64,000 bases of DNA from a bacterium. Lineage in GTDB: Bacteria; Bacteroidota; Ignavibacteria; Kapaibacteriales; UBA2268. Positions 673-52,370 of this stretch are shown in pieces. The stretch's first letter is position 1, and each line of letters begins with the position of its first letter. Below the pieces are notes generated by a model. It saw only the letters and a program-made list of their open reading frames with translations, did not search any database and had not been told where the DNA came from. The stretch is taken from the NCBI GenBank assembly GCA_043804925.1, contig JAZDIP010000104.1, positions 63,538-127,537 of the forward strand. The letters run 5' to 3'. The translations under genes and the position numbers were made by a program.

Positions 673-699
673 TGTCATTCCGAACGTAGTGAGGAATCC
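673..699. repeat. Copy of the dispersed short hairpin repeat family TGTCATTCC-N13-GGAATCC (REP-like).
   Basis: The sequence is tgtcattccgaacgtagtgaggaatcc, with inverted arms ATTCC/GGAAT. Related copies lie at 11237, 16800, 25009 and 48039, with a partial copy at 44795. Confidence 0.6.
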
Positions 700-789
700 A
701 GTATTCATACGGTTCCTGTTATTCTTTACTTTTCTTCCTTTCGCTCCGAGTGTCATTTCTATAGTTTCAATAAGTTTAAAAAATCCAGT

Positions 790-830
790 TACACAGAGTT
801 CCACGGAGGATTCACGGAGTTCCACAGAGA
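790..830. repeat. CACAGAG-type tandem word repeat (tacacagagttccacggaggattcacggagttccacagagaag).
   Basis: Repeated CACAGAG/CACGGAG words. The same repeat class flanks the GxxExxY gene at 28299-28843 and occurs in the 44861-45220 repeat island. Confidence 0.6.
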
Positions 831-865
831 AGAATTTGAAGGGAAGAATAATGTATTATTCCAAT

Positions 866-1078
866 TTATACCTTATCTTTCTTTTGCATTTCGGAAAAAA
901 TCTCGATTACCTTTTCCTTGAATTCAATCTCCATATCCATTCGGTTAAGCATTTTTTCCAATTCTTTAATTCGTTTAAGAAGTTCTTCTTCGGTAGAATC
1001 ATTATTCAATTCCATTTCATCAACCATCATATTTATATTTGTATTTTCTCTCATCATTCTACATTTTTCACTATTCAT
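866..1078 (-). CDS. Hypothetical small acidic coiled-coil protein (70 aa); may be spurious.
   Basis: ORF in an otherwise repeat-filled intergenic stretch with a charged, heptad-like sequence (EELLKRIKELEKMLNRMDMEIEFKEKVIEIF). No recognisable family. Confidence 0.2.
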   Translation of the reverse strand: MNSEKCRMMRENTNINMMVDEMELNNDSTEEELLKRIKELEKMLNRMDMEIEFKEKVIEIFSEMQKKDKV

Positions 1079-1251
1079 TTTTCATTATTCACTAAACCTC
1101 CCGCTTGTGCTTGCGTTGCGAACAGCAGAAGGGCTATGAATAAGAACGTTAATTTTGTTACTGTGTTCATTGTTGACTCCTTGTTTATTTTGAAATATTT
1201 TTGTTTTCATATTAATAATTTATAATGGTTATCAATTTTTCTAATTAAATT

Positions 1252-2319: not shown

Positions 2320-3843
2320 CTATTCGTTTGGTGGTATAATTGGCTGATAAATTGTTCCATTTTTATAATTTTGATTTTGTCTAACTCCTCTTATATAATC
2401 AATAGTCTTATCAGATACACCTGGACTTGAATTTGTAGGATTATTATTTTCAATTGCTGTTTCAAAAATATTATTATTAGTTTCGAAAGCATTATGATGT
2501 TCATCTGCCGAATTAATTTTTTTCGGATCAATTATATACCCTGAATATGGAATTTTGGATTGTATTGGTCCATAGCTATGGTAATGAAATTCATGAATAA
2601 CATTTGCAGCATTTCTACGAACATCACTGATTGAACTCAATTCATTAGCTGGATCATATATTTGGTCAAAGAAAAAATCACCTATAAAAGTTTGTGCTCC
2701 AGTGCCAGTACTAAAAATTACTACATCGTGTGTCTTTCCAGGTGCCAAAGCGACAGGTTGAGTATAACTTATTGTTGATGGCACTCTTTCGTATTGAGAA
2801 CTATTATACTTTGTAAGATCAAAAGTATTTGTATTTGGATCGTAAACTCGATAACCAGGTAATTTAACATTAGTCATGGTTCCTCCTGCAATTCCTGGAC
2901 CTAAATCTGCGGTAAAAACATATAAATGATTGTCGGGATTATTAATATAATAAGATATTGGATTTGCTGTTTGTATTTGAATATCAATATAATTTGCAAC
3001 ATCTAATGCCATATAAACATTTTGATTATTATTATACATAAATATATACTCTCCATTTTTATCTACAGCCCATATTGGTGAATTTCCAGCAAATTGATAT
3101 GGAGATAGCATAGGATAACTCTTAGTAAGAGGGTCAATACTCAAAAACCTCCCTACACGTGAATCATACATTCTTGCACCGAAGTCGAGCGAGTTTCCTT
3201 CTCCCTTTAATTTGTCGTCTTTTTCCATACCGTTGAATCCGAATCGGTAGCTTTCGCCGCTGTAAAACAATCCGGGTTGCAACATTCCGAAAGGATAATA
3301 ATTGCTGATTGCTACAAGGTCTGCATCGAATGGCTTCTTTGTTGCTCTTGGAGTGTCGTTGTCGTTGAATAGGTAATAATCCGAGAGCGGGTCAAATACA
3401 TTCGACAGCTTTAAGTCGGTGAACACTACCCTGACATTGCCCAAATGGTCTTTTAGCTCGTAATTTTTGAATCTCAATCTTCTTTCCTCAATATCGCTGT
3501 AAAGCTGGATTTGAGGATTCAAGTAATATACGGTATTCTGCGATTTACGTATGCAAAAACGTCCATGGCTTCCCGAACCGTAAATATGCCACTCACTCAA
3601 AGAAGGCATCCTTGCAGCACCTCCACCGTTAAGCCAATCCATCAGGTCGTCCAAATCATCGCCTTCGGGTAAAGTCCAAGTCATATATGGTCCCGTTTCG
3701 GAACTGGAATGAGTAGAAAAAATATTGTCTATTGAAGCAACAGCCGTATTAATATTATCATCAGGAACGGGTTTATCCGGTTGATTCCACTGGTACCATC
3801 CGTCATCCAAAATATTTTCCCTATACAATTCATAAATCGCCAT
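2320..3843 (-). CDS. RHS repeat-associated core domain protein with a ~270-aa C-terminal domain of unknown family (putative polymorphic-toxin CT). An orphan module lacking the long YD-repeat shell.
   Basis: One terminal YD repeat, then the Rhs core block ELKDHLGNVRVVF..YYPFGM..YRFGFNGMEKDDKLKGEGNSLDFGARMYDSRVGRFLSIDPL..YQFAGNSPIWAVDKNGE, then a C-terminal region with no known motif. The gene upstream is a dCMP deaminase, not an rhs body. Confidence 0.7.
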   Translation of the reverse strand: MAIYELYRENILDDGWYQWNQPDKPVPDDNINTAVASIDNIFSTHSSSETGPYMTWTLPEGDDLDDLMDWLNGGGAARMPSLSEWHIYGSGSHGRFCIRKSQNTVYYLNPQIQLYSDIEERRLRFKNYELKDHLGNVRVVFTDLKLSNVFDPLSDYYLFNDNDTPRATKKPFDADLVAISNYYPFGMLQPGLFYSGESYRFGFNGMEKDDKLKGEGNSLDFGARMYDSRVGRFLSIDPLTKSYPMLSPYQFAGNSPIWAVDKNGEYIFMYNNNQNVYMALDVANYIDIQIQTANPISYYINNPDNHLYVFTADLGPGIAGGTMTNVKLPGYRVYDPNTNTFDLTKYNSSQYERVPSTISYTQPVALAPGKTHDVVIFSTGTGAQTFIGDFFFDQIYDPANELSSISDVRRNAANVIHEFHYHSYGPIQSKIPYSGYIIDPKKINSADEHHNAFETNNNIFETAIENNNPTNSSPGVSDKTIDYIRGVRQNQNYKNGTIYQPIIPPNE

Positions 3844-3880
3844 AATTTTCCCGTTAGCATCTCTTGAATAATAAGTAATT

Positions 3881-3943
3881 TTACATTCTACATTTTACAT
3901 TATTTCCAAAACCCTATACCCAATACCCTAAACCCTATTCAAA
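3881..3943. repeat. Heptamer word-repeat spacer: the reverse complement of (AATGTAR)n followed by CCCTAWA-like words.
   Basis: The sequence is ttacattctacattttacattatttcc aaaaccctatacccaatacccta aaccctatt. It belongs to the same word family as 14198-14326 and 45121-45163. Confidence 0.6.
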
Positions 3944-7332: not shown

Positions 7333-8216
7333 ATCATCTGCAAAATATTGTCATCTGGTTTTTCGTGCTTGTTTTAGGATATAATTTAACAGCTCAGGAA
7401 AAAGATATTGATTTTAACTCTGATGAAAATATATTAAAGTTTGCAAACTTTTTATTTGATTCCGGAGAGTTCTACCGTGCAGCAAATGAATACGAAAGGT
7501 TTCTTTTTATAAAGGATAATAGGATTGACAGTATCGAGTACCGAATCGGTCTTTGTAATTTTTTCGATGACAAATTGGAAAAATCAATATCCAATTTTAA
7601 AAATACTATTGATAAGTCAGACGATTTTTCGATTAAAGTTCTTGCATTATTTCATAGTGTTTATGCATTAAACAAATTAAATCTGATTGATCAATCGGTT
7701 CTTTTTTATAATAACAACAGGGCAACAATATTTAAAGAAAGAAAACCGGACACAAGATTTGATATTTTGCTTGCATCAAATAATTTACTATTAAAAAACT
7801 GGGACCTAAGCAGAATTTTGATAAATAACTTTCCCGATAAAGGTGATTACTCAAAAGAAAAAGTTATCCTAAATAAGTTACTTGAAAAGGGTATTGATTT
7901 AAAGGAAAAAAATCCTTATCTGGCTGCAGGGCTGTCAACTATTATACCCGGATTAGGAAAAGTATATACAGGAAAAACTATTGACGGACTTTTTACTTTT
8001 CTGCTTCTCGGTTTCACGACCTGGCAGGCGTATGACGGATTTGCCGATGACGGAACAGCTTCAATTAAAGGGTGGCTTTTTTCAGGGATTGGTACTGTAT
8101 TTTATTTAGGAAATATTTATGGTTCATATATTGCGGTAAAAATAAAGAATAAAGAAATGTTTGATGAGTATAATACACAAATACATATTGAGCTTCGTAA
8201 GATTTTCGGCTATTAG
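7329..8216 (+). CDS. Secreted TPR-like protein with a C-terminal membrane segment carrying a PGLGKVYTG motif (DUF5683-like by recollection).
   Basis: Signal peptide; TPR-like helical repeats; C-terminal LSTIIPGLGKVYTGKTIDGLFTFLLLGF. 4-bp overlap with the upstream gene. Confidence 0.6.
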   Translation: MNHLQNIVIWFFVLVLGYNLTAQEKDIDFNSDENILKFANFLFDSGEFYRAANEYERFLFIKDNRIDSIEYRIGLCNFFDDKLEKSISNFKNTIDKSDDFSIKVLALFHSVYALNKLNLIDQSVLFYNNNRATIFKERKPDTRFDILLASNNLLLKNWDLSRILINNFPDKGDYSKEKVILNKLLEKGIDLKEKNPYLAAGLSTIIPGLGKVYTGKTIDGLFTFLLLGFTTWQAYDGFADDGTASIKGWLFSGIGTVFYLGNIYGSYIAVKIKNKEMFDEYNTQIHIELRKIFGY

Positions 8217-11236: not shown

Positions 11237-11262
11237 GTCATCCTGAGCTTGTCGAAGGATGC
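11237..11262. repeat. Hairpin repeat family copy (agtcatcctgagcttgtcgaaggatgc).
   Basis: CATCC/GGATG inverted arms. Same family as 673, 16800, 25009 and 48039 (reverse orientation). Confidence 0.6.
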
Positions 11263-11265
11263 ATT

Positions 11266-11345
11266 AAAATTCGGAAAAAGGAGAACGGAAAAAGGAAAAG
11301 GGAGAATGCAGAAGGACGGCAGACGGAAAGACTATAGAACAATAG
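11266..11345. repeat. Purine-rich word-repeat spacer (GGAAAAG / GACGGCA / AACAATAG words).
   Basis: aaaaggagaacggaaaaaggaaaagggagaatgcagaaggacggcagacggaaagactatagaacaatagaacaatagaac. Confidence 0.55.
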
Positions 11346-11370
11346 AACAATAGAACTAAAATACTAAAAA

Positions 11371-11513: not shown

Positions 11514-11957
11514 TCATATCTTGGTGTTTAGATTTTTTATTTTTTTTATGGTTACCTCGCGGATTTCTTCGAGATTGGATTCGCTGAGCATCCGGTATGT
11601 TTCGTCCCGGAGCTTACCCCATTTCTCGTGAACAGGGCAAGGATTGTCAGGAGAACATCCCGGAAATCCTAAGACACAATTGTGGAATATTTCGAGTCCG
11701 TCAATTGCCAAAACGATTTCGATTAATTTAATCTGGTTTGCAGGTTTGCCAAGGAAGAAACCGCCGTTCTTGCCTTTGCGTGAAGCAACAATACCATTGA
11801 GCGTAAGTGTTTGAAGCACTTTGGAAACAAACTCTTTCGGAACGTTGATTTCTTCCGAAATTTCTTTAGCACTCTTCATTGTGTTTTTATCCAGCGAGGA
11901 CAAAAACAGCACTGATTGAAGAGCAAGCTCGCATTTTTTTGAAAATATTACTGTCAT
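11514..11957 (-). CDS. Rrf2-family transcriptional regulator (IscR/NsrR-like, Fe-S cluster-binding type).
   Basis: N-terminal wHTH (ELALQSVLFLS...KEISEEINVPKEFVSKVLQTL). Three clustered Cys in CVLGFPGCSPDNPCPVH, typical of cluster-ligating Rrf2 proteins. Confidence 0.75.
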   Translation of the reverse strand: MTVIFSKKCELALQSVLFLSSLDKNTMKSAKEISEEINVPKEFVSKVLQTLTLNGIVASRKGKNGGFFLGKPANQIKLIEIVLAIDGLEIFHNCVLGFPGCSPDNPCPVHEKWGKLRDETYRMLSESNLEEIREVTIKKIKNLNTKI

Positions 11958-12008
11958 TTTTTTTCCTTTCTTTAGGTGTTGAAGCTATTAGGCATTTGGG
12001 TTTTTTTG

Positions 12009-12263
12009 TTAATGTTTTTTTAAGGAGCGGAAAAGGTCAGTGAGGATTTTTTTTATTTCCTCAAGTTTTATTTCACAGTCTTTCAAATCACCTTCCTTTA
12101 TGTATCCTAAGCTATCGGCTAATAAAATCTGATAATGCAATTCTTTGAGAGAAGCATAAATTATATCAAGGAATCGGAGATATTCTGATGAACTTTCTCT
12201 TACACAACCCTCAACTATATTTGAAGGAACCGAAACAGCAGACTTCTTCATTTGCGATGTCAA
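12009..12263 (-). pseudogene. N-terminally truncated four-helix-bundle protein (23S rRNA intervening-sequence protein family, PF05635-like). About 35 N-terminal residues are missing and the start is a TTG.
   Basis: KKSAVSVPSNIVEGCVRESSSEYLRFLDIIYASLKELHYQILLADSLGYI matches the family core (...SIPSNIAEG..R.S..EF..FL.IA.GS..EL.TQL.LA..LGY). An in-frame TGA lies immediately upstream of the TTG. Confidence 0.5.
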
Positions 12264-12538
12264 TCAATATATTTCATTTTTTGGAAAATTCCTTGTTATT
12301 TTTTATATAATAAGAGTTAAATCATCGGCTAGTTCAAATGCCCTCAGTTTTGTATTGTCTCTCATAAATACCCTAAATTTCTTTCTTCCTAATAGTCTAA
12401 ATTCCTAAACTCTTAATCTCCTAAGAACAAAATTAAAAAAAATTTTGGAAATAAGATAAAAAAGTCTTAATTTTGAAACGGACTTTAAAGTCTGATTATA
12501 AAATATGTGTTAAAATATACAATTTAGGAGATACAGAA

Positions 12539-12853: not shown

Positions 12854-12915
12854 TCAATTGTCAATTGTTAATTGTTAATTGTTAATGAAGACAGAAGACA
12901 GAAGACAGAAGGGAG
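12852..12915. repeat. Word-repeat spacer: (CAATTGTTAATTGTTAA)n followed by (GAAGACA)3.
   Basis: tcaattgtcaattgttaattgttaattgttaatgaagacagaagacagaagacagaagggag. Confidence 0.7.
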
Positions 12916-12952: not shown

Positions 12953-14197
12953 ATGAGTGAACTAATAAATAATTCGGAAAACAGAAAAAAGTTATTAAAG
13001 CATTTGATTTTGCAATTGCATGAAGGAACTGCTCCGGAGCAGGTTAGAAAACAACTAATGGATTTGATGCAAAAAATTCCTTATGGAGAAATTGTAGAAG
13101 TCGAACAGGAACTGATTAATGAAGGTTTACCTGAAGCAGAAGTAATCAAATTATGCGATATTCACGGAAAAGTTCTTGAAGGCAATATTGACCATACTGC
13201 GGCAAAGGAAGTTCCTGAAGGTCATCCGGTTGATACATTCAAAAAAGAGAATATTGAACTATCCAAAGTTGTTGATTCATTAAATAATTTCCTTAACGAG
13301 ATAACAGCAGATGGTAAACAGATAACGGCAGATAGTTTAGTTTCATCATTGAATAAAATCAAAGGAATGTTCAATGCTTTGATGGATGTTGACAAGCACT
13401 ATCAAAGAAAGGAAAATTTGTTATTCCCGTTTTTAGAAAAAAAGAATATCACAGGACCTCCCAAAGTTATGTGGGCAAAGCACGACGAAACAAGAGAGAA
13501 ACTGAAAGCCGCTATTGAGGCATGCAATCCCGAAGCTATTGCCGATAATGATGATTTCCAATCCGCTGTTGAGTTCTTATTCAAGCCGGCGGCTGAAGCG
13601 GTTACTGATATGATAATGAAGGAAGATGAAATTTTGTTTCCGATGGCGATGGATTTATTGACTGATTTGGAATGGTATGAAATTTATCAACAGACATTAG
13701 AGATAGGATTTTGCCTTTACGATCCGCAAGTTGAATGGCATCCCATTGGTGTTGAAGATGAACTGGTACATTCTAAAAGCGATGAAAATTTGATTCAATT
13801 ACCTTCAGGTAGCTTCACACCTCATGAATTGAATGCTCTTTTGAATACACTACCATTCGATTTGACTTTTGTTGATAAAGATGATAAGGTTAGATATTTT
13901 ACTCAGGGAGAGGAAAGGATTTTTGCAAGAAACAGAGCAATTTTAAAACGTGATGTTCGGTTGTGTCATCCACCTTCAAGTGTGCATATTGTTGACCAAA
14001 TAATCAATGACTTCAAGACAGGCAAGCAAGACAGGGCTCCTTTTTGGATTAATATGCACGAACAATTTATTCACATAGAATATTTTGCAGTCAGGGATGA
14101 AAATGGTGAGTATCTTGGTACATTGGAAGTGAGCCAGAATGCTACCGGATTGAGGAATCTTGAAGGTGAGCAAAGACTTCTGTCTTATAGTAAGTGA
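12953..14197 (+). CDS. DUF438-type protein with a hemerythrin-like cation-binding region and a C-terminal PAS-like domain.
   Basis: 414 aa. N-terminal helical DUF438-like region; H/E-rich hemerythrin-like motifs (KHYQRKENLLFP..WAKHDETRE). Architecture recognised from memory of DUF438 family proteins. Confidence 0.5.
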   Translation: MSELINNSENRKKLLKHLILQLHEGTAPEQVRKQLMDLMQKIPYGEIVEVEQELINEGLPEAEVIKLCDIHGKVLEGNIDHTAAKEVPEGHPVDTFKKENIELSKVVDSLNNFLNEITADGKQITADSLVSSLNKIKGMFNALMDVDKHYQRKENLLFPFLEKKNITGPPKVMWAKHDETREKLKAAIEACNPEAIADNDDFQSAVEFLFKPAAEAVTDMIMKEDEILFPMAMDLLTDLEWYEIYQQTLEIGFCLYDPQVEWHPIGVEDELVHSKSDENLIQLPSGSFTPHELNALLNTLPFDLTFVDKDDKVRYFTQGEERIFARNRAILKRDVRLCHPPSSVHIVDQIINDFKTGKQDRAPFWINMHEQFIHIEYFAVRDENGEYLGTLEVSQNATGLRNLEGEQRLLSYSK

Positions 14198-14326
14198 GGG
14201 AAAAGGGAAAAGGGAAAAGGGAGAAGGGAAAAAGGAGAAATAGAAATTAGAATGTAGAATGTAGAATGTAGAATGTAAAATGTAAAATGTAGAATGTAGA
14301 ATGTAAAATGAAAATCGAACTAAGAT
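14198..14326. repeat. Word-repeat spacer: (GGGAAAA)4-5 followed by (AATGTAGA/AATGTAAA)~10.
   Basis: gggaaaagggaaaagggaaaagggagaagggaaaaaggag...agaatgtagaatgtagaatgtagaatgtaaaatgtaaaatgtagaatgtagaatgtaaaatg. Confidence 0.8.
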
Positions 14327-14866
14327 ATGGAAAATAAATTGATTATAACACCTGAAACAAAGGTGTATGAATTGCTGAAGGAATATCCTCAACTCGAGGA
14401 TGTTTTAATAGAAATAACACCGGTTTTCAAGAAATTGAAGAATCCGGTTCTGAGAAAAACAATTGCAAGAGTTACCAATTTGAAGCAGGCGGCGGCTGTT
14501 GGTAATATTTCTTTAGGTGAAATAATAAACAAATTAAGAGAGGAAGTTGGTCAGGACACTATGGAAAATATTAAAGAAGAAAAGCGATACAAAGACTCAC
14601 CGGCATGGTTTGACAGTTCAAAAGTTACGGATAGTCTCGATGCAATGCCGATTATCAATTCCGGTGGTCACCCATTGGACACAGTAATAAAAGCAGTTAA
14701 AAGTTTAGAGAATGGGAATATCTTTGAGCTGATTACACCATTTTTACCAATGCCGTTGATTGATAAAGTAGAAGAATTGGGCTTTGAATCATGGTCAACT
14801 CAAATTGATGCTAATGTTTTCAAAACGTATTTTATTAGTCGACAGTCTACAGTCGACAGTCATTAG
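14327..14866 (+). CDS. DUF1858-domain protein (N-terminal DUF1858-like redox-associated domain plus a C-terminal extension).
   Basis: ITPETKVYELLKEYPQLEDVLIEITPVFKKLKNPVLRKTIARVTNLKQAA resembles DUF1858, a domain often found with hybrid-cluster/ferredoxin proteins. Confidence 0.45.
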   Translation: MENKLIITPETKVYELLKEYPQLEDVLIEITPVFKKLKNPVLRKTIARVTNLKQAAAVGNISLGEIINKLREEVGQDTMENIKEEKRYKDSPAWFDSSKVTDSLDAMPIINSGGHPLDTVIKAVKSLENGNIFELITPFLPMPLIDKVEELGFESWSTQIDANVFKTYFISRQSTVDSH

Positions 14867-14896
14867 TCGTTAGTTGATATAATTACTAATTACTAA
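14861..14896. repeat. Word-repeat spacer (AGTCGAC/AGTCTAC words, then ATTACTA words).
   Basis: tagtcgacagtctacagtcgacagtcattagtcgttagttgatataattactaattactaatt. Confidence 0.6.
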
Positions 14897-14961
14897 TTTA
14901 AATTGATAAATGATATTGAAAAACGGGAAATTTATTAAATTGATTAAAATATGGAAAGAAT

Positions 14962-28298: not shown

Positions 28299-28320
28299 TT
28301 ACACAGAGTTTCACAGAGAA
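28299..28320. repeat. CACAGAG word repeat (left flank of the GxxExxY gene).
   Basis: ttacacagagtttcacagagaa. The inverted counterpart lies at 28703-28738, with a second tandem copy at 28801-28843. Confidence 0.6.
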
Positions 28321-28692
28321 TTATAGAATAAATCTCCTGATACCATTTTTTAACATTGTAACATTAAAATTGATTAAAAGTCCGATCTTTTTATTTGAAA
28401 ATTTCAAATATGTAAGAATTTGAGCTTCATGCACCGGATTAAATTCATCAACAGTTTTTAGTTCAACAACAACCAGGTCTTCAATCAATAAATCAATTCG
28501 ATAACCACATTCTAATTTCTTATCTTTATATACTACAGGAACAGGTTTTTGCCTTTCGTATGATAGCCCTGCTTTCTGTAACTCATACGACAAACATTCC
28601 TCATATGCGGATTCTAATAATCCGGGACCTAAATTCCTGTGAACTTCTATTGCACGGCCAATTATTAGCTCAGTTATTTTATTTAAATCCAT
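28321..28692 (-). CDS. GxxExxY-family protein (PD-(D/E)XK nuclease-like small protein).
   Basis: ELIIGRAIEVHRNLGPGLLESAYEECL...RIDLLIEDLVVVELKTV... contains the GxxExxY motif (GLLESAY) and D...E.K nuclease-like residues. The ATG at 28692 is preferred; the ORF-track TTG at 28713 lies inside the CACAGAG repeat. Confidence 0.75.
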   Translation of the reverse strand: MDLNKITELIIGRAIEVHRNLGPGLLESAYEECLSYELQKAGLSYERQKPVPVVYKDKKLECGYRIDLLIEDLVVVELKTVDEFNPVHEAQILTYLKFSNKKIGLLINFNVTMLKNGIRRFIL

Positions 28693-28702
28693 AAAAATTC
28701 TT

Positions 28703-28843
28703 CCTCTGTGCAACTCTGTGAATTCTCAGTGCAACTACAATACTAAATTTATTAAATACTATTATAAAAAATTACAAAGCAATAGTTCTACAAATTCTTT
28801 CTCTGTGGAACTCTGTGAATTCTCAGTGCAACTCTGTGTAACT
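28703..28843. repeat. Two tandem copies (28703-28738 and 28801-28843) of CTCTGTG-word repeats, the reverse complement of the CACAGAG repeat on the other side of the GxxExxY gene.
   Basis: cctctgtgcaactctgtgaattctcagtgcaactac / ctctgtggaactctgtgaattctcagtgcaactctgtgtaact. Confidence 0.65.
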
Positions 28844-30509: not shown

Positions 30510-31400
30510 TTATTTTTTATTCATAATATCGCAATTTGCTTTCCAGATTAAATTATCTCCATTTGTATTGATTTTAACAGCAGAGAAATTAATATTATGA
30601 GGGATATAATCGAATTCTCCGGTTTTCTTTTTTTTCGACGGAATCGGCAAATCAATTACAGTTGCCAAACTTATTGGAACAGGTATCGGACTTAAAATAT
30701 CCGTAAATTCAAGTTCTATTTCTTCTCTCCAAGGGATATTCCATTTCAAAAAGGCAATCGAGAATTTTGTTTTTAGCTTTAATTTTTTTGGAACCGGCTT
30801 TAATAAAATATCTCCATTTCCTGCATTCTCGATTTTAAATTCTACATTATCCTTGAGATATAAATTAACTCCGCTTGTTACAGATGCCGAAATTCCTGTG
30901 TTTTTTCCCGACAAAGATATTTCACCATCACCTTCGATTTCAATCAATGATTCAATTCTGTTATTATTCAGCTTCAAAAATTTTAATGATTTCAAATCCA
31001 CTTTAACAGTACCTTTGTCTATATCAACATAGTTGGTATATTGAATACCCAAAACATTTTTATCGTCTTTAATCAGATTTTTTGTTTTTGGAAAATCTAT
31101 AGTTATATCTTGATTTCTGTTATTTGCAACTACAGCAAGAACTCTGTTTATCATTGCCTTTTGAATTGTCAAATCTAAATTATAACCCGAAGGCAGATTG
31201 CCGGTTTTTGAATTTATATAGTTATTTACAACATCAAGCTTGATTCTGGAATCCTCAATTTTCTTATTTGACTCCTCAATTGTTGGCAGTTCAATAGTCG
31301 AACATGAAATTATTATAAAAGCAAAAATAAAAAATAGATATTTTATATATTTCAAATTATTAGTAATTAGTAATTGGCAATTAGTAATTAATGAACTCAT
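30510..31400 (-). CDS. Hypothetical lipoprotein (296 aa). Its N-terminus is encoded by a TTAGTAA word repeat.
   Basis: Lipobox IISCST. ATGA overlap with the upstream gene. The first codons (MSSLITNCQLLITNN) are read from (attacta)n. An alternative TTG start (MKYIKYLFF..) lies at about 31355. Confidence 0.5.
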   Translation of the reverse strand: MSSLITNCQLLITNNLKYIKYLFFIFAFIIISCSTIELPTIEESNKKIEDSRIKLDVVNNYINSKTGNLPSGYNLDLTIQKAMINRVLAVVANNRNQDITIDFPKTKNLIKDDKNVLGIQYTNYVDIDKGTVKVDLKSLKFLKLNNNRIESLIEIEGDGEISLSGKNTGISASVTSGVNLYLKDNVEFKIENAGNGDILLKPVPKKLKLKTKFSIAFLKWNIPWREEIELEFTDILSPIPVPISLATVIDLPIPSKKKKTGEFDYIPHNINFSAVKINTNGDNLIWKANCDIMNKK

Positions 31401-32784: not shown

Positions 32785-32818
32785 AGTAATCTTGAAATCC
32801 GTATTTAGTAATCAGTAA

Positions 32819-34021
32819 TTATTTGCAACACCCAACTTCTTTCATGCACTTTTTGATTCTTTCCAAAGTTCTTTCAATATCATCATCCAATCCCATCGAA
32901 AAACGAATCAATCCGGGAGTCATTCCCATTTCCTTTTGCTCTTCTTCGGGTATTTCAGACGAAGTGCTTCTCCCCGGTGAACTGAACAATGTTTTGTAGT
33001 AACCCAAGCTGACAGCAAAGTATCCTACTTTTTCTTCCTGCATTTTAACTAAAAGATTATTTGCATTTTCAGTAGTCTCTGCATCAATTGTAATCATACC
33101 GCTGTAACCAAAATTCTGATTAAATAATTTTGATGCAAACTCGTATTGTGGATGGCTCGCCAATCCCGGATATATTACCTTTATTCCCATCTTCTCAAGA
33201 TTAGTTGCAATAAACAAAGCATTTTTACTATGCTGTCTCATCCTGATATGTAATGTCCTTAAATTCTTCAAAATACTCGAAGACCTAATGCTGTCAAGGA
33301 CCGGACCAATCAACATTGCAGCCCCGTCATTCACGCTTTTCATTGAACTTATAAATTCATGAGGTCCGCAAACACATCCTCCCAATGCATCACTTGCTCC
33401 GTTGATAAACTTTGTTAAGCTATGAACGACTATATGAGCACCTAATTTATATGGATTGATACAATAAGGTGTAAATGTATTATCAACAATCAATTTTAAG
33501 TTATATTTATCTGCTAATTTCCTCAACTCTGCCAAATCAGGCAGTTCAAGCATCGGATTACTCAAAGATTCACAATATATTACCTTTGTTTTCTTATTGA
33601 TTTTTTCCTCGACTGCATTCAAATCCAGTATATTCACAAAATGAGTATTAATACCTATGCGTGGAAAGAAATTCTTTAAAAGAGCATAAGTCCCTCCGTA
33701 AGTTACGCGGTGAGATATTATTTCATCACCCATTTTACATAATTGCAATAGTGTCGTACTTATCGCTCCCATTCCCGAACCTGTTACCAAAGCATCTTCA
33801 GTACCTTCCAACAAAGCCAGAGCTTTTGAAAGATTTTCATTTGCCGGGTTCAGGTGCCGTGAATAAAGAAAACATCCCTGCATCTCCTCCTGAAACAGTT
33901 TTTCCATTGTTGCCGGGTGCATAAATGTAAAAGTTGATGAATCAGTTATTGATGGATTAATACCTCCATATTCACCAAAAACCTGAAAATCCTGAAAAGC
34001 ATTTGCATAATCACTTGACAT
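32819..34021 (-). CDS. Cys/Met-metabolism PLP-dependent enzyme (methionine gamma-lyase / O-acetylhomoserine sulfhydrylase family).
   Basis: SLTKFINGASD PLP-lysine motif; NPANENL...GSGMGAI family pattern. The ATG at 34021 with a GAGGA RBS is preferred over the ORF-track TTG at 34069. Confidence 0.7.
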   Translation of the reverse strand: MSSDYANAFQDFQVFGEYGGINPSITDSSTFTFMHPATMEKLFQEEMQGCFLYSRHLNPANENLSKALALLEGTEDALVTGSGMGAISTTLLQLCKMGDEIISHRVTYGGTYALLKNFFPRIGINTHFVNILDLNAVEEKINKKTKVIYCESLSNPMLELPDLAELRKLADKYNLKLIVDNTFTPYCINPYKLGAHIVVHSLTKFINGASDALGGCVCGPHEFISSMKSVNDGAAMLIGPVLDSIRSSSILKNLRTLHIRMRQHSKNALFIATNLEKMGIKVIYPGLASHPQYEFASKLFNQNFGYSGMITIDAETTENANNLLVKMQEEKVGYFAVSLGYYKTLFSSPGRSTSSEIPEEEQKEMGMTPGLIRFSMGLDDDIERTLERIKKCMKEVGCCK

Positions 34022-44342: not shown

Positions 44343-44435
44343 TGAAATTGTTATATCAGCGTAATTATTTCTGTTGGTTGAAATTACTGACAGATTTAAA
44401 TATTGTATTTTGATTTCTCCCAAGGAATGAAAATT

Positions 44436-44467
44436 AACCGTCTTGGCTTGCTGAGACGGTTTTTTTA
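44436..44467 (+). terminator. Rho-independent terminator downstream of ftsZ.
   Basis: aaccgtct-tggcttgctg-agacggtt followed by TTTTTTT. Confidence 0.7.
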
Positions 44468-44860
44468 AATGAAATAAAATTTTTTTAGTTGTTTGTCAAA
44501 GAACGATGCAATAGTTAAAGTTGCGGTGCAATTCATGGGCTTTGTATCTCTTTTATTTCCTTGGCATTAGGAGCATCAGCGGAAAAAGTTGCATCAATTT
44601 CACCGATTTTTTCAGTTTTATTATCTGTTATCTGTAATCCATTTTTCGTTATTTTATAAAACCGAAATCAATTTACAAAGAACATGCTGGACAAATTTAG
44701 TTGTTAGGTATTAAACGTAATGGAAATTATTTTAAAAGGACTATTATTTTGTTCTCGGTTGTCAGTTATCGGTATCGGTTGAAAACGAAACAGTATCCTT
44801 CGACAAGCTCTGGAAGACCGCAGACAGCAGACAGCAGGCGGGAGGAAGAGAATACAGTTA

Positions 44861-45516
44861 CAGACAGATTCACTGAGGAGGCATGGAGGGACACAGAGAA
44901 GAAGTCTGAACCGTTGATTGTAGCTGATTGAACTGATTTTGGTGATTATTAACAGCGTAGCTGTGGTATCTATTATGTCGCCACTACGTGGCTTTGAGCG
45001 TTGTTGGTTGTCGTGTGCTACAAAGGTGATACCACTACGTGGTTAAGAATTTCTGTCGGAACTGGGATTTTTAGGATTTATGGGATGGACAGGAAAATTG
45101 CTGTCAGATGTAACAAAGACAGAACGAAATTAAAATGTAAAATGTAGAATGTAGAATGTAGAATTGAAGGCAGTTACACGGAGCTACACAGAGGAGGCAC
45201 AGAGGGACACAGAGAAAATGTCTGAACCGTTGATTGTAGCTGATTGAAATGATTTCGCTGATTTTTTTAACAGCGTAGCTGTGGTATCTTGGTAGAAAAA
45301 GTGAACCAATAGCGGTTTGAACAGCGTAGCTGTGGCATTTTTATATAATCGTAATTAGTAATCGTTAATTCGTAATTGAATCAATGCCGCCACTACGTGG
45401 CTTTGGTCGTTGTTGGTTGTCGTGTGCTACAAAGGTGATACCACTACGTGGTTAAGAATTTTTGTCGGAACTGGGATTTTTAGGATTTTTGGGATGGACA
45501 GGAAAATTGCTGTCAG
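44861..45516. repeat. Two tandem copies (about 44861-45107 and 45174-45516) of a composite repeat unit.
   Basis: The unit contains CACAGAG words, tctgaaccgttgattgtagctgattgaa, aacagcgtagctgtggtatct (x3), ccactacgtggc hairpins, gtcggaactgggatttttaggattt and a ctgtcag hairpin. AATGTAR heptamers (45121-45163) lie between the two copies. Confidence 0.7.
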
Positions 45517-45748
45517 TTGTAAAAAGTGACAGGACGGGAAAGCCACAGAGCCACACACCCCCTACCCCCCTCTTGATAGGGGGGACAAGAGACCCCACCC
45601 CTGCTCTCCCCGAATCAGGGAGGGAGAAGAAAGATGTAATCTTTAGGCGATATTTTTTTCCTCATCGCTTTTTGCTGTCAGGTGTAGGAACTGACAGAAC
45701 GGAATATTACCTCAATTTATTGATTCGAATGAGTAATTATATATACTA

Positions 45749-46327
45749 CTAAGGAGCTTCTTTTATTTTTAATATATTTTTTAATTCATCAATTACTTTT
45801 TTTAAATCATCAATTTCTTTTCTAAGTTCAATTTCCTTTAATCCTTTAACTAGTTTATCAGTTAATACAGCCAGGAGACTAGAAAAAGCATTAGTTATTG
45901 AATGTAAAGTTTGCGGTAAAAAACCACTTAATCCTAAGAAAGCAAAAACAAATAAAAACAAATCCGACCAATCTAGAACTATTTGGTTACCACATTCCAC
46001 AATGTTCAAATTTTTTCTTGCAAAAATATACAAGCAAATCCACCCAAAAAATCCACCCATGAAATTAAAAACGAATTGTAAACCACCATGAACAATATGA
46101 TGATATAAAAAAACACTATTAAATGATTTCCAAGGTTTTTCAAAATTCTTTTTTAATTCAATTTGATTTTTTGTATCATTTTCATATTTTTCATGATTAA
46201 ATATATAATTTGCCTTGTTTGATCTAGTGTCATGCCAATAGTATCGAAGACCAAAATATAAACCAAAAATTGTTGCAAAATAAATCCAAGAATCAGCTAT
46301 AAATTCAAGAAATTTTTCGAGATTCAT
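45749..46327 (-). CDS. Hypothetical membrane protein (192 aa; about 3 TM helices plus a C-terminal coiled coil). Second gene of an unknown two-gene cassette.
   Basis: TM segments WIYFATIFGLYFGL, VFLYHHIVHGGLQFVFNFMGGFFGWICLYIF, LFLFVFAFLGLSGFL. C-terminal KEIELRKEIDDLKKVIDELKNILKIK. No recognisable family. Confidence 0.5.
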   Translation of the reverse strand: MNLEKFLEFIADSWIYFATIFGLYFGLRYYWHDTRSNKANYIFNHEKYENDTKNQIELKKNFEKPWKSFNSVFLYHHIVHGGLQFVFNFMGGFFGWICLYIFARKNLNIVECGNQIVLDWSDLFLFVFAFLGLSGFLPQTLHSITNAFSSLLAVLTDKLVKGLKEIELRKEIDDLKKVIDELKNILKIKEAP

Positions 46328-46354
46328 ATTATCTCCTTTCTGTAAATTATTTAA

Positions 46355-46993
46355 TTAATACAACGACAATGATCTTTGTCTAAAAATATAAAAGTAATTC
46401 AAAGTTGGATTTTTGGTAAGTTCATCACCATTAGCGAGTGAATACTCAAAATCCACATCAAATTTTAAAATTTCATCATCTCCATAATTATTTTTTTTAT
46501 TGTAGTAAATGTCTTTATAACTTTCACCTGCTAATTTTAAATATCTATCGATATCAATCCATCCATTAAAGATCCCAAATGGTTGAATTGTACGGTATTC
46601 TTTACCTCCATAAAAATCATTTGTTTCATACAGTTTACCAAAAACTACAGATTTTATAATACATCTACATTTTAAAGGATATTTTGTGAAATTTTGCATA
46701 ATAACCCTAAACTCATGATTTTCATGTACTGTACCTAGAGGTTCATATTTCTTTTGATCTTCCGCTGAAATTAACTTTACACTTGCACTTAAAATTAAAT
46801 CCTGTCGATAAATTTTGTAGTTATAATAAGTATAATAAATCAAAGCTATAAAGGTAATGAATAAAATGAAATCATTGTTACTTAGATTCATATGAAAACA
46901 AAATCTTAGTAATAAATAAAAAATGAACCATAACAAAATAATTAGGAAAATTGATTTAAATTTTTGAAAAAATTTTATACTTTTATTTTTCAT
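46355..46993 (-). CDS. Hypothetical membrane protein (about 212 aa; 2 N-terminal TM helices plus a ~150-aa soluble C-terminal domain). First gene of the unknown two-gene cassette.
   Basis: The ATG at 46993 with an AAGAGGTG RBS is preferred over the ORF-track start at 47020. TM helices IFLIILLWFIFYLLL and FILFITFIALIYYTYY. The C-terminal domain has no known motif. Confidence 0.5.
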   Translation of the reverse strand: MKNKSIKFFQKFKSIFLIILLWFIFYLLLRFCFHMNLSNNDFILFITFIALIYYTYYNYKIYRQDLILSASVKLISAEDQKKYEPLGTVHENHEFRVIMQNFTKYPLKCRCIIKSVVFGKLYETNDFYGGKEYRTIQPFGIFNGWIDIDRYLKLAGESYKDIYYNKKNNYGDDEILKFDVDFEYSLANGDELTKNPTLNYFYIFRQRSLSLY

Positions 46994-47013
46994 ATAACAC
47001 CTCTTAATTATTT

Positions 47014-47110
47014 TATTCATAAAACATATTTATTTCTTCTTCAGGTGTATCTATTCTTTTCACACTCTTTGTCGGAACTGTGATTTTTGTGATTTGTGTG
47101 ATTTTTATGA
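47014..47110. repeat. Left direct repeat of a ~55-bp pair flanking the GxxExxY gene, plus a GTCGGAACTGTGATTTTTGTGATT word repeat.
   Basis: attattttattcataaaacatatttatttcttcttcaggtgtatctattctttt closely matches 47644-47700. gtcggaactgtgatttttgtgatttgtgtgattttt is related to 45055, 45465, 47558 and 47611. Confidence 0.65.
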
Positions 47111-47153
47111 TAAAACAAAATCATGTTTTCATATTAATCATATAAATCATAGT

Positions 47154-47552
47154 TCAGACAATTTGTTTGTATTTCTTATTTTCAAATCTTTTGAACTCAA
47201 GACTTTGAGCTCCAAAATTAATCAACAATCCGATTTCCAGATTGTATGCTTCCAAATAATTGATTGCCTGTGCTAAATGAACTTTCTCCAATTCAATCAA
47301 TGCTTTCAACTCAACTGAAATTTTATCTTCAACAAGAAAATCAACTCGTCTTTCACCAACTTCAACGTGTTTGTAATGAACTTTTATTGGTTGTTCTCTT
47401 ATGAATTTTATCTTTCTTAGCCGGAATTCTTCTGCTAATGCTCTTTGATAAATCAACTCCTGAAAACCATTGCCTAATGCTTTGTGTACTTCTAAAGCAG
47501 CACCAATAATTTTTGATGTCAATTCCGAATATTTATATTTTTCATTTATCAT
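47154..47552 (-). CDS. GxxExxY-family protein (PD-(D/E)XK nuclease-like), second copy.
   Basis: SKIIGAALEVHKALGNGFQELIYQRAL (GxxExxY) ... RVDFLVEDKISVELKAL. 132 aa. Flanked on both sides by direct repeats. Confidence 0.75.
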   Translation of the reverse strand: MINEKYKYSELTSKIIGAALEVHKALGNGFQELIYQRALAEEFRLRKIKFIREQPIKVHYKHVEVGERRVDFLVEDKISVELKALIELEKVHLAQAINYLEAYNLEIGLLINFGAQSLEFKRFENKKYKQIV

Positions 47553-47557
47553 AATTT

Positions 47558-47700
47558 TTTGTCTGAACTATGATTTTTGTGATTAATATGATTGCTGAGA
47601 TTATATTTGTCAGAACTGTGATTCATATGATTTTTATGATTGCCATGATTATTTATTATTCAAACATATTTATTTCTTCTTCTGGGGCATCTATTCTTTT
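47558..47700. repeat. Right-hand repeats flanking the GxxExxY gene: two GTCTGAACTATGATTTTTGTGATT-type words and the right copy of the ~55-bp direct repeat.
   Basis: tgtctgaactatgatttttgtgatt..tgtcagaactgtgattcatatgatttttatgatt..gattatttattattcaaacatatttatttcttcttctggggcatctattctttt. Confidence 0.65.
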
Positions 47701-47810
47701 GCTTGATTTCTTAAACGTTGTTTGCAATCCTTTGCCGGGGATTTGGACGGATTTGTGCATCTCCTTAAGCACATCGAGGCAGTTGCCGTAGTAGAGTTCG
47801 TTCATTACCT
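47664..47810 (-). pseudogene. Remnant of a DNA methyltransferase N-terminus (49-codon ORF); its 3' end forms the right direct repeat.
   Basis: The minus-strand ORF reads MNELYYGNCLDVLKEMHKSVQIPGKGLQTTFKKSSKRIDAPEEEINMFE. MNELYYGNCLDVLKEM is the classic N-terminus of N6/N4 DNA methylases (MNKLYYGDCLEVLK...), but the sequence diverges after ~16 aa and stops. A decayed copy of the same tail (KRIDTPEEEINMFYE*) sits at 47020-47068. Confidence 0.4.
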
Positions 47811-47820
47811 TAGTTCATAA

Positions 47821-47940
47821 AGTTTATAAAGTATAAAGTTTAAAAGTTTAAAAGTCCCAAAAGGAAAATTACGAAAGATTTGAGAGAAAAGCAAGAAGTC
47901 TGAAGACAGAAGTCAGAAGTCTGAATTCTCGTGAACCGAA
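47821..47940. repeat. Word-repeat spacer: (AAAGTTTAWAAG)n, then (GAAGTCWGAAGAC)n.
   Basis: ttagttcataaagtttataaagtataaagtttaaaagtttaaaag ... aagcaagaagtctgaagacagaagtcagaagtctgaa. Confidence 0.6.
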
Positions 47941-48038
47941 AACCGAAAAAATCACTTATGAAAAGGACATCTTATTATTCGTTGTGTTACCATAGTACAA
48001 TCCCTATCGGGATAGGCAATTGTTAATTGTTAATGATA

Positions 48039-48062
48039 TCCTTCGACAAGCTCAGGATGATA
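48039..48062. repeat. Hairpin repeat family copy in reverse orientation (atccttcgacaagctcaggatgat), preceded by (TTGTTAA) words.
   Basis: Reverse complement of the 11237 copy (atcatcctgagcttgtcgaaggat). Confidence 0.6.
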
Positions 48063-48390
48063 GGAGAAGGGGAGACGGCAGACGGCAGTCAAAAAGACAG
48101 AAAAATAAAAGATTTACAGGCAGGTGAAAGCCCAATTGTTTACATACTTTGCCCTGACAGGTTTTGTACTTCCGGCTTTGCCGTTGAACAATTCTCTTGA
48201 AATTGATGCGAGGTATTTAAAACTGTTGTTGGATTTAGAAAATTCCCCCTTTTCGTTTTCTCTATCATTTTTTAAATTTGAGAAAGCGAAAGAATAGTTG
48301 TATAATTCTATACCGTATCTGAATTCTGAGTGTATTCCCATTGTATTACCCAATCTATTTTATATATTAATTTAAAAAATTTGTGCGGAG

Positions 48391-48437
48391 CTATTAAGTA
48401 ACTATCTATAAATTGATAGCCCCGCACGCATTTATGA
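48391..48437. other. Strong isolated hairpin (12-bp stem with one mismatch, 21-nt loop) in non-coding DNA.
   Basis: gtgcggagctat-taagtaactatctataaattg-atagccccgcac. Confidence 0.5.
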
Positions 48438-49001
48438 AAACAAAATTCCCTTAAGCCGTCCAAATGTTCAGACATCTGTGCCAAATCCTTAATGCCCGAA
48501 GTTATGTGGGATTACTTGAGGTTCAACTATGATAAAAATCTTTTAATATCAATCAAACTTCCGACATTAATTTACTAATCCAAAAACCCTATCTATATTT
48601 ACCGAAAATGGCTGATTGCTCAAGAGAAAATAATATTTAAAAAATTATTTGGTCAATAAGCTAATCAAAAATTCTCCATCATATTGAAAAAATCTGTCCG
48701 GGAATTTTAAAACGGTTTCTATGAGGTTCAACTATGAATTACAAACTGGGCTTGCAAATCCCGGACAAATAATTTTTCTATAAGGAAATATTCTGTTTTC
48801 AAATAACAATCATAAAAGTACAAATAACTACATACAAAAAAACGAAATAGTATAAGCTTTAAATATAACTGTTTATATGATTTTATTGTAGAATAACAAA
48901 ACAATTATATGTAGTAAAAATTACTACATTTATTTTAAATTATTTTGTTATTATTTCGATAATCGTCTTAAGAAAGTCGTCCCAGAGTAATTACCGGGAA
49001 T

Positions 49002-49043
49002 ATGAAACCTGAGTTTATTATGTGTTTCAGGTTTCATTTTTTG
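49002..49043 (+). terminator. Strong plus-strand rho-independent terminator with no upstream plus-strand CDS; implies an unannotated plus-strand transcript (candidate sRNA).
   Basis: atgaaacctga-gtttattatgtgt-tcaggtttcat (11-bp perfect stem) followed by TTTTTT. There is no U-run in the minus orientation, so it does not serve the convergent minus-strand gene. Confidence 0.65.
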
Positions 49044-49086
49044 AGATTTTTAGTTTACGGTGATATAATTATCTTGGAACTTTTCA

Positions 49087-51099: not shown

Positions 51100-51204
51100 A
51101 TTTTCATCCGGTTTGTTAAATTAAAATTCAAAAATAATATAATTCCTTTATTTTCAATTTTCGACAAATTTAAAAAGAGCAATTTAAAAAACAAAATTTT
51201 AAAA

Positions 51205-51337
51205 CCATAATTCAATCCCTCCGGGATTGTGAAAACAAAAATAATTATCGTTTTCTACATATATTCAATCTCTCCGGGATTGTGAAATCCTTGGTTTACC
51301 ACTGCTACCATAGTTCAATCCCTCCGGGATTGTTCTT
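51205..51337. repeat. Mini-array of three palindromic direct repeats (a 24-30 bp core TTCAATCCCTCCGGGATTGTGAAA) separated by unrelated 20-29 bp spacers. CRISPR-like geometry, but no cas genes nearby; alternatively a REP/terminator hairpin cluster.
   Basis: Copies at 51211-51234, 51264-51287 and 51314-51334 (the last is degenerate at its distal end). The core forms the hairpin ttcaatccc-tcc-gggattg(t)gaa. Spacers are acaaaaataattatcgttttctacatata and tccttggtttaccactgctaccatag. Confidence 0.55.
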
Positions 51338-51388
51338 GCACCCTTCTCCCTTTTCCTTTCTCCTCCAATGGTTTCGCTTTTTCGTGTT

Positions 51389-52355: not shown

Positions 52356-52370
52356 AGATAAAATAATATT

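Follow-up and report, generated by a model that had tools for sequence, protein, structure and literature searches.

What are the short words, repeated head to tail, that occupy so many of the gaps between genes in a 64-kb stretch of a bacterial contig (JAZDIP010000104.1, positions 63,538 to 127,537; the whole stretch is called the window hereafter), and do they encode anything? The question is posed most plainly by positions 14198-14326, 129 nt that fill the whole gap from a DUF438-hemerythrin-PAS gene (12953-14197) to a DUF1858/DUF2249 gene (14327-14866) and that a first-pass annotation, made from the sequence alone, had presented as one site of a genome-wide intergenic "code" written in 7-nt words. 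Arrays of such words are enriched in the window, lie mostly between genes, turn over fast among relatives, have in one case expanded in place by four units of 7 nt and have no predicted RNA structure, and they are probably heptanucleotide simple-sequence repeats that slippage makes in place and that are mostly neutral, their placement being limited by what is tolerated; we infer slippage as the most likely generator, and near-neutrality as the most likely condition of its products. The class, which the annotation did not recognise as a described one, is not a new one, as the over-representation of heptanucleotide tandems in bacterial intergenic DNA has already been published, and it is the words and the host lineage that are new.

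Period-7 arrays in the window

Tandem Repeats Finder (TRF), run at a score of at least 30 over the whole window, returned 24 arrays of period 7, against a mean of 3.6 and a maximum of 8 in 30 dinucleotide-preserving shuffles in which each gene and each gap was shuffled separately, and a second, stricter custom detector returned 10 arrays for 0.25 expected. Nineteen of the 24 are mostly intergenic, in a window of which 17% is intergenic DNA, and the remaining five, nominally coding, all lie at the ends of open reading frames (ORFs) or within a doubtful one, so that the claim of a non-random, recurring intergenic feature is borne out. The arrays are 15-63 nt long, comprise 2.1-9 copies at 75-100% matches and together amount to 617 nt, or about 6% of the intergenic DNA; eight arrays of period 14 and three of period 21 are mostly the same arrays seen again. 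Set against the shuffles, the excess belongs specifically to period 7 and the multiples of it, with periods 8, 9 and 10 also enriched about 2-fold, and the vocabulary is therefore not purely one of 7-mers. The same periods stand out across 161 related loci (L001-L161, mostly Bacteroidales and Bacteroidota metagenome-assembled genome loci; 2.2 Mb), where tandem arrays scoring at least 40 peak at periods 7, 14 and 21 (36, 47 and 23 arrays, respectively).

That all this might have arisen by chance in intergenic DNA of low complexity and high A+T content, or through faulty assembly, is a notion to which the composition lends some colour, the G+C content being 29-40% within the window and about 33% in the genome, with AT-rich spacers, and a few of the sites listed by the annotation are weak indeed (32791-32822 and 52060-52100). 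It can nevertheless be regarded as excluded, since none of the gap-wise shuffles came anywhere near the observed count and composition alone would not confine the excess to one period and its multiples, whereas an assembly artefact is hard to reconcile with arrays that are shorter than a read and with the same excess in an independently assembled related metagenome contig (L081).

The primary spacer illustrates how the arrays are placed. Its first array, AGGGAAA/GGGAAAA in 5.7 copies (14197-14236, plus strand, TRF score 66), takes as its first base the final one of the DUF438-hemerythrin-PAS stop codon, and its second, TAGAATG/TAAAATG (that is, AATGTAG/AATGTAA) in nine copies (14248-14310, plus, score 105), is the longest in the window, stops 16 nt short of the DUF1858/DUF2249 start codon (ATG) and has each of its own ATGs directly preceding a TAG or a TAA. 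Further arrays sit at the neighbouring junctions on the same strand: AATTGTT x4.4 (12856-12886, score 55), beginning 2 nt past the stop of the cupin gene; GAAGACA x3.6 (12887-12911, score 50, 100% matches), which abuts it and ends 41 nt before the DUF438 start; AGTCGAC/AGTCTAC x3.6 (14837-14861, from TRF and alignment), within the last codons of the DUF1858 gene; and TAATTAC x2.7 (14880-14898, score 38, 100% matches), in the spacer between the latter and a 4Fe-4S gene. Most arrays of the window likewise lie inside operons, between a stop codon and the following start, the others being in 3' regions; many begin no more than a few nt from the upstream stop and end 16-66 nt before the following start, the placement to be expected were coding sequence and the initiation region the only limits to expansion. 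A position 4-66 nt upstream of a start codon, in the sense direction of co-directional genes, is also common. Several arrays in the 161 loci also begin exactly at the upstream stop codon (e.g., TAAAGGA in L010 and TAGGGGT in L024).

Most of the 15 sites listed by the first-pass annotation could be confirmed one by one, but three are not 7-mer arrays: 12373-12420 has a period of 8/16 instead, 32791-32822 holds two loose units only, for which TRF reports nothing, and 52060-52100 is a polypyrimidine run, called weakly at period 10, while 51341-51370 and 53060-53140 are periodic, albeit imperfectly, with a period of 7/14. The assertion that the sites share a vocabulary to a degree "far beyond chance" fares less well. 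With array units compared under any rotation and on either strand, three pairs of arrays have identical units (AATGTAA at 3878 and 45127, AATTGTT at 12856 and 48018, TAATTAC at 14880 and 31359), where 1.06 would be expected with random intergenic 7-mers (p = 0.09) and 0.54 with letters permuted within units (p = 0.017), and pairs of units at most one mismatch apart number 15, not significantly above the 13-14 expected. It is mainly through their tandem copies that the listed words are over-represented between genes, singletons being only mildly above the shuffles; stop codons, said to be carried by several words, are indeed present in AATGTAR, AATTGTT and TAATTAC, but not in GGGAAAA, GAAGACA or AGTCGAC.

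Turnover among relatives and probable origin in place

The proteins of the host point to the Bacteroidota/FCB group (e.g., a SurA_N_2/PpiD-like protein and a Por_Secre_tail domain of type IX secretion sorting), and the closest relatives of the window proteins are found in metagenome-assembled genomes of Bacteroidota or of the "Bacteroidetes/Chlorobi group", the top match of the DUF438 protein being that of "Bacteroidetes/Chlorobi group bacterium ChocPot_Mid" (83%); FtsZ, for which a 100% identical protein is on record from an NCBI metagenome-assembled genome, is 53-56% identical to Kapaibacterium proteins and 52-56% identical to Ignavibacteriae proteins, and the best protein identity in relatives was 83% in the genome scan and 86% in the metagenome scan. 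Four of these relatives keep the cluster Rrf2 (minus strand)/cupin-DUF438-DUF1858-Fer4, namely L001 (83% protein identity), L081 (86%), L082 (81%) and L083 (75%), and none of its spacers is conserved, their lengths across relatives being anything from 8 to 170 nt. Between the cupin and DUF438 genes, the window has 99 nt with AATTGTT x4.4 and GAAGACA x3.6, L081 about 95 nt with AATGTAA x3.4 and AAACTTTAA x3.6, L001 about 56 nt with no array, and L083 about 12 nt (the spacer is outside coverage in L082). The 129 nt and two arrays between DUF438 and DUF1858 correspond to about 62 nt in L081 and about 58 nt in L001, both array-free, to about 145 nt with degenerate words in L082 and to about 8 nt in L083. 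From DUF1858 to Fer4 there are 95 nt in the window, about 170 nt with AACGGAC x13.4 in L081, about 50 nt in L001 and about 125 nt with TAAATTC and AAACTTTAT words in L082, L083 being outside coverage there.

It follows from this comparison that the operon exists with almost no spacers and that about 15% protein divergence has been enough for arrays to appear, disappear or give way to others; the set of relatives thus shows directly that the arrays turn over faster than that and are dispensable for the operon. A code is not supported by such spacers, as it would imply a conserved function, and the orthologous spacers have either no arrays or other words, with those of one relative being a mere 8-12 nt long. 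The density of period-7 arrays varies among the relatives too, with a window-like excess in L081 (8 vs 0.9 expected) and L082 (3 vs 0.13), and background levels in L001, L161 and L083.

One array is an expansion of local sequence. The AGTCGAC array is, by alignment, an exact 28-nt (4 x 7) insertion relative to both L081 and L082, falling within a TTAGTCG/TTAG that is uninterrupted in both: their DUF1858 genes end in ...TTAGTCGTTAA or ...TTAGTCGTTAG, while the window reads TTAGTCG-ACAGTCTACAGTCGACAGTCATTAGTCG-TTAG. The insertion is flanked by a duplicated ATTAGTCG, shifts the stop codon of the gene and adds seven C-terminal residues (QSTVDSH). The orthologous L001 spacer holds one copy of TAGAATTG, which is only suggestive of origin in place. 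Whole spacers, moreover, can be read in 7-nt units in a single register, with transitional units between one word and the next, as in the primary spacer (GGGAAAA x3, GGGAGAA, GGGAAAA, AGGAGAA, ATAGAAA, TTAGAAT, GTAGAAT...), in a second one (TAGGGTT TAGGGTA TTGGGTA TAGGGTT TTGGAAA TAATGTA AAATGTA GAATGTA) and in a third (AGTCGAC AGTCTAC AGTCGAC AGTCATT AGTCGTT AGTTGAT ATAATTA CTAATTA), a pattern to be expected of repeated slippage combined with point mutation.

A plausible sequence of events would have a short local sequence duplicated by slipped-strand mispairing or unequal exchange during replication, 7-nt units being those that might slip most readily in many bacteria (a published suggestion is that 7 nt corresponds to the polymerase footprint). 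The units would then mutate and variant units be amplified anew, with the result that two or three words would stand side by side in one spacer, all in the same heptamer register. Such arrays would expand and collapse quickly and persist only where they do no harm, that is, from a stop codon to some 16-40 nt upstream of the following start, or in 3' untranslated regions, the filter being what a polycistronic mRNA tolerates; those that remain in the window are mostly rich in A and G, poor in C and free of structure on the mRNA strand, in which they resemble its transcribed DNA at large. Any effect on expression, be it the uncoupling of translation between neighbouring cistrons or an unstructured A-rich leader where Shine-Dalgarno sites appear to be lacking, as in this lineage, would be a by-product, and the arrays would be spacers rather than a code.

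Are such repeats known from elsewhere? According to the accounts of Mrazek 2007 given in PMC4679880 and PMC4692102, heptanucleotides are the most abundant class of long simple-sequence repeats (LSSRs) in most of the prokaryotic genomes surveyed, and polymerase slippage was proposed as their cause. LSSRs, as far as these accounts describe them, are head-to-tail units of 5-11 nt, most commonly 7, that exceed chance in length, are scattered phylogenetically and, when the unit length is not divisible by three, keep to non-coding DNA; the window agrees in its tandem units, their excess over composition, their non-coding concentration (the intergenic share and the ORF-end position of the rest, given above) and their instability, judged on the orthologous spacers of L001, L081, L082, L083 and L161, the difference being that the present lineage lies outside that survey and that its words are new. 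Calothrix and Nostoc carry several tandem heptamers (PMC4692102), and the cyanobacterial STRRs (short tandemly repeated repetitive sequences; heptamers of Calothrix, Nostoc and Anabaena), taken together with the G-rich GGGGAYT of Nostoc, resemble the present arrays in comprising several words per genome and in lying between genes, including within operons (pecE-pecF); some of these words can form G-quadruplexes, as GGGAAAA and TAGGGTT might here by motif only (PMC4692102). The TAACTGA repeats, known from marine Beggiatoaceae, some Cyanobacteria and five Bacteroidetes, where they precede start codons (MacGregor 2015, PMC4679880), come in short sets (2-6 units), are mostly intergenic, are present or absent among close relatives, stand in forward orientation just upstream of starts that lack Shine-Dalgarno sites and, in Gramella and Aequorivita, share their spacers with other heptamer repeats (PMC4679880). 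Xanthomonas GGGAATC, an intergenic heptamer typically of about four units, varies in length and sequence between close relatives at the same spacers, and both it and the GGGGAYT of Nostoc lie within some operons too and differ among close relatives (PMC4692102), but GGGAATC is one dominant G-rich word with inverted pairs in a GC-rich genome, in contrast to the many AT-rich words of a genome of low G+C (PMC4692102).

The differences from the other two groups are just as clear: the host is not a cyanobacterium and its arrays are shorter (2-9 units) than STRRs, and, unlike TAACTGA, no single word dominates and the arrays usually end 16-66 nt before the start instead of overlapping the ribosome-binding region. 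STRR1 is CCCCAGT, STRR2 TTGGTCA and STRR3 CAACAGT, and neither these nor GGGGAYT have a single tandem copy in the window, in which TAACTGA occurs 15 times singly and never in tandem; membership of the named heptamer families (TAACTGA, STRR1-3, GGGAATC, GGGGAYT, TTTTGAA) was rejected, as none is tandem in the window. A CRISPR array, with repeats of 23-50 nt and unique spacers, was rejected as well, the units being 7 nt long and contiguous. The excess of heptanucleotides has been known for decades in scattered bacterial lineages, and the window adds a clear case from an uncultured Bacteroidota/FCB lineage.

Counter-evidence and rival explanations

Several observations do not sit comfortably with neutral slippage in place. 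Identical words at unlinked sites of the window are slightly more frequent than expected (the three pairs above), and AATGTAA, TAGGGTT and CAGAAGT recur in L081 at other positions, a recurrence at unlinked or non-orthologous sites that random local seeding does not predict. One array, at 53105-53139, is conserved in position with CCCTTCT x4.4 at 8051-8081 of L161 (blastn; FtsZ 88% identical), and it is the only one so conserved in a relative. Three arrays abut copies of a 21-nt imperfect palindrome, CCTTCGACAAGCTCAGGATGA, and one such composite is a discrete indel, both of which suggest copy-and-paste for a subset of the arrays. Finally, the purine-rich, C-poor bias of the short array-bearing spacers could reflect selection for function.

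This bias, and what it would mean in RNA, can be put in numbers. Pooled on the presumed sense strand, the arrays contain 43% A, 8% C, 22% G and 27% T; short array-bearing spacers have 2-5% C and a purine fraction of 0.62-0.81, against 0.44-0.55 in array-free spacers, and a predicted minimum free energy (MFE) per nt of 0 to -0.1, against -0.1 to -0.25 in other spacers. The primary 129-nt spacer is predicted to be fully unpaired (MFE 0 kcal/mol), and a structured-RNA reading was rejected, the folds of the spacers being indistinguishable from those of shuffles (z -1.0 to +1.4). The covariance models of Rfam 15 gave no match at the gathering threshold in the whole window and chance-level matches at E<=1 around the arrays, and a scan of the spacers for sigma-70 promoters and intrinsic terminators stayed at background level, Bacteroidota-type promoters being outside its scope. 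Canonical G-quadruplex motifs, defined by regular expression as at least four tracts of three or more G with loops of 1-7 nt and thus predicted from the sequence motif only, occur at just two loci in the 64 kb, 14198-14228 (plus; GGGAAAA) and 3912-3935 (minus; TAGGGTT), both on the sense strand. Arrays with more G than C on the sense strand outnumber the others by 15 to 8 (p = 0.21), and by 14 to 4 (p = 0.03) only after post-hoc exclusion of the 47.8-48.1 kb block, and the wider clade has 24 arrays with a purine-rich sense strand to 13 (p = 0.10), for which reason a sense-strand purine or G>C rule was not retained. GC and AT skew flip with the direction of transcription in the window as a whole (about +0.1 to +0.25 where the genes are on the plus strand and -0.1 to -0.27 where they are on the minus strand), with a strong purine loading of the sense strand throughout, and since the whole genome has the same strand skew the orientation bias of the arrays may be inherited from this background.

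Might the arrays then be functional cis-elements of mRNA, i.e., unstructured A/G-rich, C-poor leaders, or landing pads between cistrons, to which ribosomal protein S1, a cold-shock-type oligonucleotide-binding (OB)-fold protein (about one per 6-7 nt) or the ribosome itself would be drawn, with the ATG-TAR units acting as start-stop traps? Their frequent position on the sense strand shortly upstream of co-directional starts, the C-poor, purine-rich and nearly structure-free spacers, the stop kept right behind the ATG in both AATGTAR variants and the A-rich start-codon contexts with little sign of Shine-Dalgarno pairing would all suit such a role, and there are precedents in the translational-regulation model published for the TAACTGA repeats of Beggiatoaceae (MacGregor 2015, PMC4679880) and in a Nostoc preprint, where deletion of the repeats altered recO promoter activity in a reporter assay, the role being left as speculation. 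We nevertheless consider this unlikely, as the orthologous genes of L083, L001 and L081 manage without arrays, the sense-strand bias is weak both in the window and in the clade, the composition of the strand is the general skew of the genome, and arrays are also found in 3' regions (11273-11356) and in long, probably untranscribed insertions. A role as contingency loci, in which a change of copy number would alter promoter spacing or reading frame (phase variation), appears very improbable: tandem repeats are the classic substrate of phase variation, heptamer tracts are reported to act so in some pathogens, and the array at 14837-14861 does reach into a coding region and change the C-terminus of the DUF1858 protein, but 28 nt is not a multiple of three, the frame meets a TAG within the repeat and the outcome is a 7-residue extension and no on/off switch, most arrays are intra-operon stop-to-start spacers, not promoter spacers or 5' coding regions, and the genes beside them are housekeeping or redox genes, not surface antigens.

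Quite unlikely, too, is that at least a subset of the arrays are dispersed composites, similar to repetitive extragenic palindromes (REPs) or miniature inverted-repeat transposable elements (MITEs), built around CCTTCGACAAGCTCAGGATGA, or companions of selfish cassettes (PDDEXK_3 "GxxExxY", four-helix-bundle), that spread by insertion instead of arising locally. The palindrome (stem ATCCT/AGGAT), which looks like a small dispersed REP-like element and has no Rfam match, has three copies in the window for 0.00 expected, at 11238-11258 (minus, exact, abutting the arrays of 11273-11356), 44797-44817 (plus, two mismatches) and 48040-48060 (plus, exact), and all three adjoin CAGACGG or CAGACAG words; a diverged copy in L081 (16884-16904) follows a TAGGGTT array, and L001, the closest genome relative, has a 3 x 24-bp tandem of it (1-71). 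AATTGTT x2.4, the motif and purine-rich GGAGAAGGGGAGACGGCAGACGGCAG together form the single indel of about 68 nt relative to L161, both PDDEXK_3 genes and a four-helix-bundle remnant are flanked by arrays of 7-10-nt words, and the remnant and its array lie in an insertion of about 400 nt that is absent from L001 and L081. On the other hand, the best arrays (12856-12911, 14197-14310, 14837-14898 and 3878-3937) have neither motif nor cassette nearby, terminal inverted repeats or target-site duplications were not identified, the motif at 11238 is turned round but the words beside it are not, an indel relative to a single relative cannot distinguish insertion from deletion, and homologues of the PDDEXK_3 and four-helix-bundle cassettes are lacking in the 161 related loci. 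That the arrays are made or propagated together with the CCTTCGACAAGCTCAGGATGA element and these cassettes, or else selected as Shine-Dalgarno-independent landing pads for ribosomes or OB-fold proteins, is given a small chance; were it so, the limited set of words shared with relatives at non-orthologous sites (AATGTAR, TAGGGTT, CAGAAGW, GGGAAAA) would denote a real sequence-specific system. One five-gene cluster with spacers of 8-12 nt, of about 60 nt, or of 95-170 nt filled with different words makes a natural comparison, and the spacers of the relatives are ready constructs for measuring an effect on the translation of downstream cistrons in bacteria without Shine-Dalgarno sites.

Remaining arrays, cassettes and insertions

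The remaining arrays are scattered along the window. On the minus strand at its left end, AGTGAAT/AATGAAA/AATGTAG units (1044-1095; TRF periods 7/14/21) run into the ATG of a small minus-strand ORF, and ORF 689-1225 (plus), which has no Pfam match, is probably spurious, as it runs antisense through both. AATGTAA/AATGTAG x3.4, in the sense of the flanking minus-strand genes (3878-3901, TRF), lies 34 nt upstream of the start of ORF 2320-3843, and TAGGGTT x4.1 beside it (3906-3937, minus, TRF; CCCTAAA on the plus strand) overlaps the last codons of a deaminase ORF. TAAAGAA x3 (8137-8156, plus, TRF) is at a gene junction, and GGAAAAA x4.4, GACGGCA x2 and ATAGAACA x2.9 (period 8) make up 11273-11356 (plus, TRF), in the 3' region of an OPT transporter gene and upstream of a hairpin followed by a T-run, both read by eye. 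An array of the CTAAACTC type, period 8/16, occupies 12386-12424 (TRF, strand unassigned), upstream of the truncated four-helix-bundle ORF. TAATTAC x4.6 (31359-31390, minus, TRF score 50) had been described as the first codons of a lipoprotein gene (30510-31400, minus); it lies between an overlapping ATGA junction and the probable TTG start of that gene, the ATG at 31400 probably not being the true start and a TTG at about 31353 (MKYIKYLFFIFAFIIISC, with a lipobox) fitting better, which would put the array upstream of the gene. Such cases (ORF 689-1225, the extended C-terminus of DUF1858 and the doubtful start at 31400) have a practical side, as arrays can mislead gene callers.

Farther to the right, on the plus strand, the mismatched motif copy is followed directly by AGACAGC x3.3 (44797-44837, motif search and TRF), and AAATGTA/GAATGTA x5.6 (45127-45164, TRF, repeat family D1) is inside a 3.5-kb insertion downstream of ftsZ; TCGTAAT/TAGTAAT x4.1 (45349-45377, TRF) is imperfect, with 75% matches. 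AGTTTATAA (period 8-9) x5, AGAAGTC/AGAAGAC x4.6 and AACCGAA x2.3 follow at 47812-47949 (TRF), and the AATTGTT-motif-GGAGAAGGGGAGACGGCAGACGGCAG composite at 48018-48088 (TRF, motif search and alignment). On the minus strand, 51341-51370 has imperfect heptamers, purine-rich in the sense direction and of the AGGGAGA/AGGAAAA type (by inspection of the sequence), and 53105-53139 (TRF, blastn), just downstream of an HMGL-like gene, is a sense-purine-rich array of period 14.

The two small PDDEXK_3 (PF13366) genes, at 28321-28713 and 47154-47552 (both minus), are flanked by arrays of 9-10-nt words at 28299-28322, 28692-28843, 47059-47151 and 47558-47660, with CACAGAG flanking one side and the complementary CTCTGTG the other, as well as TGTGATTTT/TATGATT; word blocks of this type recur in the window at 782-834, 44851-44903 and 45167-45219, and in L001 at 11533-11919, and the genes with their flanking words may be small mobile cassettes. 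A small hairpin motif at 676-700, GTCATTCCGAACGTAGTGAGGAATC (stem ATTCC/GGAAT), has the architecture of the 21-nt motif and adjoins a CACAGAG/CACGGAG block. The divergent Rrf2/cupin promoter region (11958-12472) is about 400 nt longer than in L001 and L081, and the extra DNA holds the period-8 array and a truncated ORF (12009-12263, minus) that, judged from its sequence, is putatively four-helix-bundle-like; a TAATTTTG promoter-like box and an inverted repeat beside the cupin gene are conserved with L001.

Comparison with L161 delimits two larger insertions. The 3.5-kb one downstream of ftsZ (44426-47970) contains internal duplications (44845-45116 and 45161-45525, 83-95% identical), three ORFs without a Pfam match, one PDDEXK_3 gene, bracketed as a cassette by a 49-nt duplication (47012-47060 and 47652-47700), and a 49-aa methyltransferase-like N-terminal ORF (47659-47805, minus). 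The other, of about 2 kb (51100-53137), lies between the HMGL-like and CoA-transferase genes and holds three copies of a 27-nt repeat (51204-51333), a MazF/PemK toxin gene (51389-51721) and an ORF that no Pfam family matches (52371-53051), with purine-rich heptamers near both ends. Between the two, about 750 nt at 48341-49086 (about 2120-2820 in L161) have no long ORF and are conserved about as well as the neighbouring genes (76% over 1.6 kb); they contain a hairpin, GTGCGGAGC...GCCCCGCAC, and two copies of TGAGGTTCAACTATGA, and, being without an Rfam match, may represent an undescribed non-coding RNA or regulatory region.

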